Part shown: in pieces, positions 42,001 to 43,830 of the stretch | How positions within the stretch are numbered: position 1 is the first letter of the stretch | Layout of the letters: each line of letters begins with the position of its first letter | Origin: a virus | Taxonomy: Duplodnaviria > Heunggongvirae > Uroviricota > Caudoviricetes | Strand: one strand, 5' to 3' | Virus record (IMG/VR): IMGVR_UViG_2839610755_000005 | DNA: 43,830 bases | Made by a program: the position numbers

Positions 42001-43830
42001 GATCACCGCATTGCACTTCAGTTCGGTGGTGGTAATGAGGAGACGAATCTCTGGACGCTCTGTACCGAATGCCATCGCCAGAAGTCAGTCAGTGAAACGG
42101 CGAGTGGTATGCCGGACCCGACGCTGCCGGAGGTGTCCGGAGGTCATGGCAGGGCAGACGATATCATCGGACTGTGACCCGCCCCGGGGGGGGATCATCC
42201 GGCGAAAAAACGATCGCCCCGGACACCGCCCCCCGTCTCATGCAGAGAAAAAATTCCTGTTTCAGGCCAGTTAACATGTTAACTGGCTGCCCGGGCATTT
42301 TTTCGGTTTTTATCTTTATTATTCAGTTTGTTGTGCGAAAAAAATGTTAACTGGCTTTTTCAGCAAATGTTAACCAGGCAGCAGTTAACATTTGCGGCAT
42401 GAGATGCCGGGAAAAATGGGCTGAACCATACCCGGCTGAGTGCGTTCTGGACCCGGGAGGAGGCTGTGCTGACAACGCAAAAACGAAAATTTGCGCTGGC
42501 GCTCATGTCCGGGAAAAACAAAACAGCGTCAGCCATTGCCGCCGGTTATTCGGCGAAGACCGCCAGGGTTAAAGGCTCGCAGCTGGCAAAAGATCCTGAG
42601 GTGCTTGCGTTTATAGCCCGTAAACAATGCGAGACGGTGGAGGTGGATGAGGTTCCTGTTTACCGGCAGAAAAAATCAGAGCAGGAGGATAAACCCCGTC
42701 GCCGTGAGGCGGCTGCAATACCACAGCCGGACGAAACAAATCCGGAGATGCCACCGCCCGTGGTGATATCTCCTGGTATTGAGTATATGGAGGACGGTCT
42801 TCCCGATCCGGTGAAAGCGATGGGGCGTCTTCTGGTGGAGAACATTAATACCGACCCCAGGCTGGCGCTGGATGCGGCTTATAAGCTGGCGCAGTTCACG
42901 CACCACAAAAAAGGGGATGCCGGTAAAAAATCGGCAAAAGGTGACGCGGCGAAAAAAGCGGCTAACCGTTTTGCGGTGCCACCACCACCCCGCCTGGTGG
43001 TGAATAATGATAATGAGGGCAACGGATGATACCTGTGTGGAGCACGGCCTGCCCGGACTGGGCAGAGCGCCTGAAAAAGGGGCTGTCGATTATTCCGGCT
43101 CCGATTTATCCGGAGCAGGCCGCACATGCCCTGGCGATTTTTAAACAACTGCGGATTGTGGATGCACCGGGCAGCCCGACGTTCGGGGAGTCCTGCGCAC
43201 AGTGGGTGTTTGACCTGGTGGCGGCCCTGTTTGGCTCCTACGATGCGCAGACCGGTGTACGCCATATCAAGGAAGTTTTTATCCTTATCCCCAAGAAAAA
43301 CAGCAAGTCCACGCTGGCTGCCGGGATCATGATGACGGCGCTGTTACTGAACTGGCGGCAGGCGGCGGGCTACACCATTCTGGCCCCGACCGTGGAGGTG
43401 GCGGCTAACGCCTTCAACCCTGCCAGGGATATGGTACGACGGGACGATGATCTGGATGACCTCTGTCAGGTGCAGACACATATCCGGACCATCACCCACA
43501 GGGTGACGGACACCACCCTGAAGGTGGTGGCTGCCGATCCGAATACGGTATCCGGTATCAAGTCCGTGGGGACGCTGATTGATGAACTGTGGTTATTTGG
43601 CAAGCAGTACAAAGCGGAGGACATGTTACGTGAAGCCATAGGCGGCCTTGCCTCCCGCCCGGAAGGGTTTGTGGTGTATACGACCACCCAGTCGAATGAG
43701 CCGCCAGCCGGGGTGTTCAGACAGAAACTGCAGTACGCCCGGGATGTCCGTGACGGCAAAATTCATGATCCGCACTTTCTGCCGGTGATTTTTGAGCATC
43801 CTCCTGAAATGGTGGAAAGCGGGGCTCACC

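Follow-up and report, generated by a model that had tools for sequence, protein, structure and literature searches.

The stretch of DNA analysed here (the window, 43,830 nucleotides) is the IMG/VR virus record IMGVR_UViG_2839610755_000005 (Caudoviricetes). At its right end it carries a gene for an HNH endonuclease, the gene for the small terminase subunit (terS, TerS) and the 5' part of the gene for the large terminase subunit (terL, TerL), and the intergenic region between the HNH gene and terS contains a G-rich run and five copies of the heptamer TGTTAAC (Table 1). By comparison with related sequences, this region is the cohesive-end packaging site (cos) of an HK97/D3-type packaging module, located in a lambdoid prophage of the BP-4795/2851/1717 type of Shiga toxin (Stx)-converting phages. 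The packaging region is 97–99% identical to that of Stx-converting phages such as BP-4795, 2851, 1717 and Stx2a_WGPS8, and the 268 TerL residues encoded in the window are 100% identical to the best prophage record and 99.6% identical to the TerL of BP-4795. An initial annotation of this DNA had recognised the gene order HNH-cos-TerS-TerL as that of HK97-type packaging modules, and this is borne out by the Pfam assignments of the three proteins (HNH, Terminase_2 and PF03354; the PF03592 score of TerS is 35.7 bits against a cut-off of 26.1), by the presence of an HNH homologue 5' of cos in related phage loci (135 local tblastn matches) and by the homology of the predicted nicking site (cosN). 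The intergenic region was found in 1284 of 5426 complete Escherichia coli genomes, with up to nine copies per genome, and is 100% identical in E. coli O157:H7 FRIK944.

Table 1. Genes and cos features at the right end of the window. Offsets (+) are counted from the predicted top-strand cut; the cosN and cosB assignments are predictions.
Feature	Position	Strand	Remarks
PerC-family transcriptional activator homologue	41150-41464	+	PF06069, E=4e-44
DUF3950 (YlcI/YnfO) gene	41546-41770	-	Pfam match; adjoins the HNH gene
HNH endonuclease gene	41812-42177	+	121 aa; PF01844, E=2e-6; accessory nuclease of HK97-type cos cleavage
G-rich upstream cos element, G8 + ATCA	42186-42197	+	within and after the run CCCGCCCCGGGGGGGG (42178-42193); conserved in relatives
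Predicted cosN cohesive end CGCCCCCCGT	42227-42236	+	predicted 10-nt 3' overhang; gap-free alignment with the HK97, D3 and Bcep176 record ends
Conserved +1 to +21 block CTCATGCAGAGAAAAAATTCC (A-tract), part of cos	42237-42257	+	near-identical in Enterobacterales loci
Candidate cosB sites 1 and 2, perfect 22-bp palindrome	42266-42287		heptamers GTTAACA 42270-42276 and TGTTAAC 42277-42283; +34/+41
A/T-rich spacer between sites 2 and 3	42296-42344		70-85% A+T in 42310-42349; T6 at 42298, T5 at 42307, A7 at 42338
Candidate cosB site 3, TGTTAAC	42345-42351	+	+109; same position in satellite L099
Candidate cosB site 4, TGTTAAC	42368-42374	+	+132; in the left arm of the inverted pair 42363-42374/42384-42395
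Candidate cosB site 5, GTTAACA on the + strand (TGTTAAC on the - strand)	42384-42390	-	+148; right limit of the cos unit kept by L099
terS	42466-43029	+	187 aa, GTG start; N-terminal helix-turn-helix of SF6/SPP1 G1P type (Terminase_2), PF03592, E=2e-8
terL, 5' part	43026-43830	+	runs off the window; PF03354 (TerL_ATPase), E=5e-12 (4.5e-12), 268 residues in the window

The hexamer GTTAAC occurs ten times in the window against 9.0 expected, and five of the ten copies are found within 120 bp between the HNH gene and terS (at 42270, 42278, 42346, 42369 and 42384; span 42270–42389). When the window was simulated 1000 times under a first-order Markov model, at most three copies fell within 125 bp (in 2 of the runs) and four or more were never obtained, so that the repeat cluster reported by the initial annotation is real. 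A search for ATGTTAACYRG with at most one mismatch returned ten matches in the window (2.2 expected), five of them inside the cluster. Parts of the earlier description required correction: the palindrome is indeed perfect but extends over 22 bp rather than 20 (GCCAGTTAACA|TGTTAACTGGC), and the core common to the copies is (A)TGTTAAC, whereas the proposed (T/C)GG extension is present in three of the five copies only (TGG three times, CAG once and TGC once). The second inverted pair is present as described, with GCAAATGTTAAC at 42363–42374 and GTTAACATTTGC at 42384–42395 (arms of 12 nt, spacer of 9 nt), as is the G/C-rich run CCCGCCCCGGGGGGGG, which directly follows the HNH stop codon (42175–42177) and is partly palindromic (CCCGGG core). 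Taken as heptamers, the five copies fall at +34 to +154 between the predicted cosN and terS. Elsewhere in the window, a tandem GTTAAC pair (ACGTTAACCAGTTAACAA, 25103–25120, copies at 25105 and 25113) and one exact ATGTTAACTGG at 31763–31773 were noted; both lack the repeat context and were treated as chance occurrences.

Since no close relative examined was deposited with physical ends, the ends of distant phages with the same module were used to place the cut. For HK97, the 10-nt 3' overhang and the +1 numbering are published (PMC11331095, PMC9410871). The HK97 record ends ...GACCGCCGCCAAA, that is ...G9-ATCAAATC...GAC|CGCCGCCAAA, and restarts with GTTTGAATTT. The Burkholderia phage Bcep176, whose TerS is 37% identical to the window TerS, has an identical 10-nt end at both record termini, followed directly by CTCACGCGCAGAAAA, and when re-oriented reads GGGGAGGGGG-N33-[CGCACGTTCC]CTCACGCGCAGAAAATTTTCCC. 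The record of the Pseudomonas phage D3, which reportedly has a 9-nt 3' overhang, ends ...GGGGTGGGGCGGGTCAAAAC...GGACACCGCGCCCCCA; the terminal GGACACCGCGCCCCCA matches window positions 42221–42236, and the core GGACACCGC is common to D3 and the window at 42221–42229. The corresponding window sequence is GGACAC|CGCCCCCCGT|CTCATGCAGAGAAAA, or in longer form G8-ATCATCC...-N33-[CGCCCCCCGT]CTCATGCAGAGAAAAAATTCC, and the top-strand nick is therefore predicted at 42236|42237, some 35–45 bases 3' of the G-rich run. The record ends of SfV failed to align in the same register and were not used.

The G-rich run, followed by (A)TCA, ends 32–33 bp 5' of the cohesive end in HK97, Bcep176 and the window (33 bp in the window); in D3 it is interrupted, at a similar distance 5' of the cohesive end, where GGGGTGGGGCGGGTCAAAAC resembles the G8 + ATCA of the window. 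Because the aligned ends fall 32–33 bp 3' of it, the run is regarded as a separate conserved element and not as the nick site. The suggestion of the initial annotation that the G/C-rich run itself could hold the nick is thus not supported by the alignment of the three record ends, which places the cohesive end at 42227–42236, 33 bp downstream. The run lies 88–93 bp before the terS start in the 18 enterobacterial GTDB loci, as far as their upstream region was fully recovered, and in the satellite copies of cos similarity extends leftward no further than this run. The papers on HK97 packaging that were searched make no mention of it. It may be general to 3'-overhang cos sites of this class; a role similar to that of cosQ, or one in positioning TerL and the HNH protein, is speculative. 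On the other side of the predicted cut, the +1 to +21 block corresponds to CTCACGCGCAGAAAATTTTCCC in Bcep176 and is kept in satellites, even where TerS is a different one. Since the block was included in the pattern with which IMG/VR was searched, its lack of variation among those loci is due to ascertainment.

Homologues of TerS were found in 19 GTDB loci, of which 18 are enterobacterial prophages (Atlantibacter, Enterobacter, Kluyvera, Erwinia, Serratia, Pantoea, Citrobacter and other genera). A block of approximately 92 bp from the G-run to the terS start is common to the loci with a fully recovered upstream region, the part adjoining the terS start being present in 18 of 18, and the 190-bp segment that holds the repeats in the window was found in none of these GTDB loci. 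A scan of IMG/VR with the cosN core returned at least 137 loci, which were sorted into a compact and an expanded class. In the compact class (at least 55 loci), the start of terS is at +39/+40 relative to the predicted cut, a near-palindrome GT(A/T)AAC-AT-GTTAAC spans the terS start codon (ATG TTA ACA, Met-Leu-Thr), and one further GTWAAC half-site lies to the left of cosN at about -34. Codon 2 was TTA in 46 of 46 distinct compact terS genes among the matches listed, although TTA makes up 1% of their other leucine codons, and the nucleotides at this position, not only the protein, are therefore under constraint. In a locus from Entomohabitans teleogrylli, the palindrome at the terS start is mirrored (GTTAAC-GT-GTTTAC) and TerS begins Val/Met-Phe-Thr; here the N-terminal residues have apparently diverged, whereas the DNA element retains a GTTAAC half beside a GTTTAC half.

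The expanded class comprises at least 76 loci including the window, and its members all seem to derive from E. coli-type phages. In this class the terS start is at +223 to +230, the palindrome is still at its original distance from cosN (+34/+41), and three more heptamers follow at +109, +132 and +148. Sites 1 and 2 of the window are thus positionally homologous to the near-palindrome over the start codon in compact relatives, and in BLAST comparisons the Salmonella phage SP-016 aligns with the E. coli phages right up to ATGTTAAC. The window terS, uncoupled from the site, begins GTG CTG. The spacer between sites 2 and 3, which is possibly intrinsically bent to judge from its composition, differs in sequence between lineages but is kept in length (site 3 at +107 to +110). 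The relic of the ancestral terS start codon (42276) opens a 24-codon open reading frame on the plus strand (42276–42350, MLTGCPGIFSVFIFIIQFVVRKKC), whose product would be hydrophobic with a basic tail and which has no obvious Shine-Dalgarno sequence; although reminiscent of small membrane peptides, it is probably meaningless.

Within 62 distinct expanded variants among the matches listed, none of the 35 heptamer positions varied, compared with 53 of the 106 other positions in 42259–42399 (Fisher p=3e-9). The same pattern was found in an element that keeps the site without a terminase. L099 (IMGVR_UViG_2563366903_000013) is an 11.7-kb contig encoding an integrase, a D5-type primase, a single-stranded DNA-binding protein, a capsid protein resembling gpE and a decoration protein resembling gpD, in which no terminase or HNH homologue was found. 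Its cos region (about 10700–10905) comprises the G-run, cosN and five heptamers at +34, +41, +109, +133 and +149. All 35 heptamer positions are identical to the window, against 63 of 98 others, and similarity ends just after site 5; cos sites of this type occur in 48 of the 5426 E. coli genomes. E. coli GPEC1186 has a second island (L029/L030), flanked by yhdJ and fis, with genes for an integrase, a RepA-type helicase, an Icd-like protein and a capsid-like protein (a weak major-head-protein match) but with no terminase or HNH homologue; its cos (12000–12210 in L030) has the cosN and G-run of the phage with TGTTTAC and TGTTAAC sites mixed. From their gene content, L099 and L030 look like cos-type satellites of Stx-type phages. 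Since such packaging-only elements keep the region from the G-run to site 5, the functional unit is delimited to approximately 42186–42390.

A different arrangement was seen 5' of two TerS homologues, P0061 and P0053, which are 46–49% identical to the window TerS and share its invariant C-terminal motifs. Both are encoded in small islands, P0061 beside a primase or helicase and P0053 beside an AlpA-like gene. Upstream of them the phage features are conserved from the G-run through the 33-bp spacing and the overhang (CGCCCCCCGT or CGCGCCCCCT) to the CTCAT/A-tract block, and AAAAGTTACAC repeats replace TGTTAAC. L155 has two of these repeats, in direct orientation, and L158 about five, in an expanded layout. 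The loci of this kind (L155–L157, positions 1370–1500, and L158/L159, positions 1215–1500) show a primase or helicase, small genes, cos, terS and a capsid-like gene, one of them lying by AlpA and an AIDA autotransporter. No HNH homologue was found by local tblastn in the satellite islands checked. These islands look like a counterpart, directed against this phage family, of the own-TerS strategy of the Staphylococcus aureus pathogenicity islands (SaPIs).

The N-terminal profile of the window TerS matches the solved DNA-binding domains of SF6-type G1P proteins (4zc3, 2cmp and 3zqp). In an AlphaFold2 model, residues 1–55 have a predicted local distance difference test score (pLDDT) above 92 and form four helices (4–14, 19–25, 33–41 and 44–55), with residues 30–41 constituting the recognition helix and residue 32 at its start; beyond residue 55 the monomer model is of low confidence (mean pLDDT 67, predicted template modelling score 0.32). 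A sister lineage, represented by L028 and the intact prophage L164 (STEC1585) and found in 11 genomes, keeps the five-site layout, but each site is TGTTTAT or TGTTTAC (site 3 TGTTTAT, site 4 TGTTTAC, site 5 GTAAACA). Its TerS is 76% identical to that of the window and its recognition helix reads SEKSARC instead of SAKTARV, and its HNH protein is 84–92% identical. Among the matches listed from the IMG/VR loci, a K-T-AR helix accompanied a GTTAAC left half-site in 79 loci, four of them compact, and a K-S-AR helix accompanied (G/A)TAAAC in 55 of 56 (one locus with a masked helix counted). The repeat motif thus covaries with the TerS DNA-binding domain, TGTTAAC with SAKTARV, TGTTTAY with SEKSARC and GTTACAC with the satellite TerS, over few independent events. 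While the repeats change with this domain, cosN and the G-run stay constant, as would be expected of the part that is read by the TerL and HNH protein of the helper.

We therefore consider it probable that the five TGTTAAC repeats are the TerS-binding (cosB) sites of a cos that extends from 42186 to 42390. The role assigned to the GTTAAC repeats by the initial annotation, that of TerS recognition sites, is consistent with their invariance among variants, their retention in a satellite without a terminase, their switch together with the TerS recognition helix and their replacement in satellites that bring their own TerS. The cos unit would be ordered as the G-rich element, 33 bp, cosN, the A-tract block from +1 to +21 and cosB. 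The latter would consist of an abutting inverted pair (+34/+41), about 60 bp of A/T-rich DNA, a single site (+109) and a second inverted pair (+132/+148). The N-terminal helix-turn-helix domains of an oligomeric TerS of the SF6/SPP1 G1P type would bind the heptamers, thereby marking the DNA as viral and positioning TerL and the HNH protein on cosN, where the two would make staggered nicks that leave the 10-nt 3' overhang CGCCCCCCGT. Packaging would then run to the right, entering terS and terL, in agreement with the order cosQ-cosN-cosB-Nu1 of lambda. Within this scheme, the exact nick positions, TerS as the binder, the stoichiometry, the bending of the DNA and the role of the G-run are inferred from sequence.

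Several points weigh against the assignment of the heptamers to TerS. The records and literature searched contained no physical end-mapping or binding data for this phage or its close relatives. Among the close-relative phage records examined none opened at cos: that of vB_EcoS_phi330 apparently opens near terL, to judge from the match coordinates, and those of vB_PR2a, vB_E264 and BR141a either start at an arbitrary point or are incomplete. The 62 variants used for the invariance count were chosen for having sites 1–3, only L028 and two truncated loci being excluded, which is a step of ascertainment, and because the expanded variants are closely related (93–100% identity) the counts do not represent independent events. 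The association between helix and motif rests on perhaps two or three independent switches, and a concerted change of both palindrome arms would also keep a hairpin. The centre-to-centre spacings of the sites (7, 68, 23 and 16 bp) fit no simple helical repeat. Finally, the TerS of HK97, which among cos-type TerS proteins of this module is the only one studied structurally, binds one 15-bp site by a different mechanism (PMC11331095); being unrelated in sequence, it lends no support to the binding mode proposed here.

A wider interpretation, which we put forward tentatively and regard as possible but doubtful, is that the heptamer array serves as an exchangeable specificity cassette between the prophage family and its satellites, and that the G-run at -33 is in addition an undescribed universal element of 3'-overhang cos sites (HK97, D3, Bcep176). 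In such a case cosN and the G-run would be held fixed by the TerL and HNH protein of the helper, and the array would be free to change together with the helix-turn-helix of TerS. The E. coli lineage would have shifted the site off the terS start codon and gone from one palindrome to five sites. Satellites would either copy the array exactly (L099) or bring their own TerS with GTTACAC repeats (P0061, P0053), and the mixed TGTTAAC and TGTTTAC sites of L029/L030 could serve two helper specificities.

It is unlikely that the heptamers are instead operators for another protein, whether the DUF3950/YlcI-YnfO protein, the HNH protein or a host nucleoid protein. The DUF3950 gene does adjoin the HNH gene in the window, L028 and L164, and RefSeq annotates a YlcI/YnfO-family gene in satellite L030, but no DUF3950 homologue was found in the fetched flanks of compact loci or in satellites L099, L155 and L158, and this candidate was rejected on that ground. 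The HNH gene, for its part, is always adjacent in the phages, yet its product remains 84–92% identical between the TGTTAAC and TGTTTAY lineages, whereas TerS is only 76% identical with a changed recognition helix, and satellites that hold a TerS homologue as their sole packaging gene have changed the repeats and not cosN or the G-run. A host factor would leave the lineage-specific motif switches unexplained, and the consensus of the integration host factor (IHF), WATCARNNNNTTR, has no match in 42150–42500. Elsewhere in the window this consensus has 11 matches against 3.6 expected, a number reached by no shuffle; all are located in 4610–28585 and they include an overlapping pair (9572/9575) and nearby sites at 9988–10159 and 14698–14804.

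We likewise give little credence to the inverted repeats acting as hairpins, in RNA of the late transcript or as cruciform DNA, that tune terS translation or transcript stability. The 234-nt leader folds somewhat better than shuffled sequences (z=-2.1; 5 of 200 shuffles fold as well), both palindrome arms change together in the TGTTTAY lineage so that pairing would be preserved, and the start codon of terS falls within the element in compact relatives. On the other hand, L099 keeps the five sites without a downstream terS, the direct GTTACAC repeats of L155, a satellite with its own TerS, cannot form a hairpin, and site 3, which is unpaired, shows no more variation than the paired sites and switches with them. 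The stems are also A/U-rich and weak. Promoter and terminator scans of the region gave one weak promoter-like match on the minus strand and one marginal terminator-like hairpin (42291–42306), with no excess over shuffles.

Nicking inside the G/C-rich run at 42178–42193 is very unlikely: its G/C content, its partly palindromic sequence and its conservation in all relatives speak for this run, but the deposited ends of HK97, D3 and Bcep176 lie approximately 30–45 bp 3' of the equivalent run. Hardly credible is the notion that the repeats are neutral relics of a duplicated ancestral terS 5' end (ATGTTAAC, encoding Met-Leu-Thr) left by an insertion of about 190 bp between cosN and terS, for although the first palindrome is exactly at the ancestral terS start position and the 24-codon frame still opens at the relic ATG, the heptamers do not vary where 50% of neighbouring positions do (among the 62 variants listed), are identical in L099 where the spacers are only 64% identical to the window, and have been replaced in concert, all five, in the sister lineage.

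The preferred assignment, TerS-binding repeats within cos, is a known kind of signal that is undescribed for this phage family in the papers searched, and no new kind of system is involved; the literature searched contained no description of the cos site of phages of the BP-4795/2851/1717 type. In lambda, as in the window, an upstream element and the nick site are followed by repeats for the small terminase (R3, R2 and R1 for gpNu1) before the small terminase gene, and between lambda and phage 21 specificity is set by the repeats and the TerS DNA-binding domain, as proposed here. The window differs from lambda in its predicted overhang (3', 10 nt), its HNH partner, the lack of an IHF consensus in the region (which has A/T tracts instead), a TerS with a Terminase_2/SF6-type helix-turn-helix (the lambda Nu1 domain is a winged helix) and an array of five 7-bp heptamers including two inverted pairs. 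The module of HK97 (gp74 HNH, gp1 TerS, gp2 TerL) shares with the window the HNH-cos-TerS-TerL order, a TerL of PF03354 and a G-rich run 32–33 bp 5' of a 10-nt cohesive end with CGCC as its first bases, and the compact relatives resemble HK97 further in that TerS starts about 40–50 bp after the cut. The TerS and HNH proteins of HK97, however, show no usable similarity to those of the window, and the HK97 TerS-DNA structure is therefore not transferable to this phage. HK97 TerS recognises a single 15-bp site (+15 to +29) with the DNA threaded through its central tunnel (PMC11331095), unlike the several helix-turn-helix sites over +34 to +154 proposed for the window. In D3 the sequence 3' of the cut is unrelated, TerS is different and no TGTTAAC array was seen.

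The G1P proteins of SPP1 and SF6 have an N-terminal DNA-binding domain homologous to that of the window TerS, and in SPP1 several short G1P-binding boxes, associated with bent DNA, flank the cleavage site. These phages package by the headful mechanism (pac) with imprecise cuts and without an HNH protein, in contrast to the cos-type module of the window with its defined cohesive end. Satellites are known to copy a lambda-type cos site (PMC6092414), and both cos copying and an own TerS are described as satellite strategies (SaPIbov5, EcCICFT073, SaPI TerS; PMC6092414, PMC5052747). Similarly, L099 and L030 carry a helper-type cos, and the P0061/P0053 islands their own TerS with matching repeats; mobilisation of all these islands by the helper phage family would be in keeping with their gene content.

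Outside the cos unit, the PerC homologue lies just 5' of the packaging module, as it does in many prophages of enterohaemorrhagic and enteropathogenic E. coli. In PPompW prophages (LC567818, LC567822 and others), similarity to the window begins only at about 42189, and an IS110-family insertion sequence, ISEc20, is annotated at the breakpoint. The insertion appears to lie inside the G8 run of cos, separating the HNH gene and half of the G-run from cosN, and would probably disable packaging.

Many Stx1- and Stx2-converting phages have this packaging module, as do approximately 25% of complete E. coli genomes, where several copies are often present; its cos site therefore determines the encapsidation of Shiga toxin phage DNA and of any DNA that carries a copy of the site. 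The map presented here yields a predicted nick position, five candidate TerS contacts and one candidate specificity residue, and TGTTAAC and TGTTTAY provide a natural pair of specificity classes. Small islands appear to exploit the same cos signal. If the heptamers are indeed bound by TerS, they would represent a second, mechanistically different mode of TerS recognition in an HK97-type module, of which HK97 is the only studied example.

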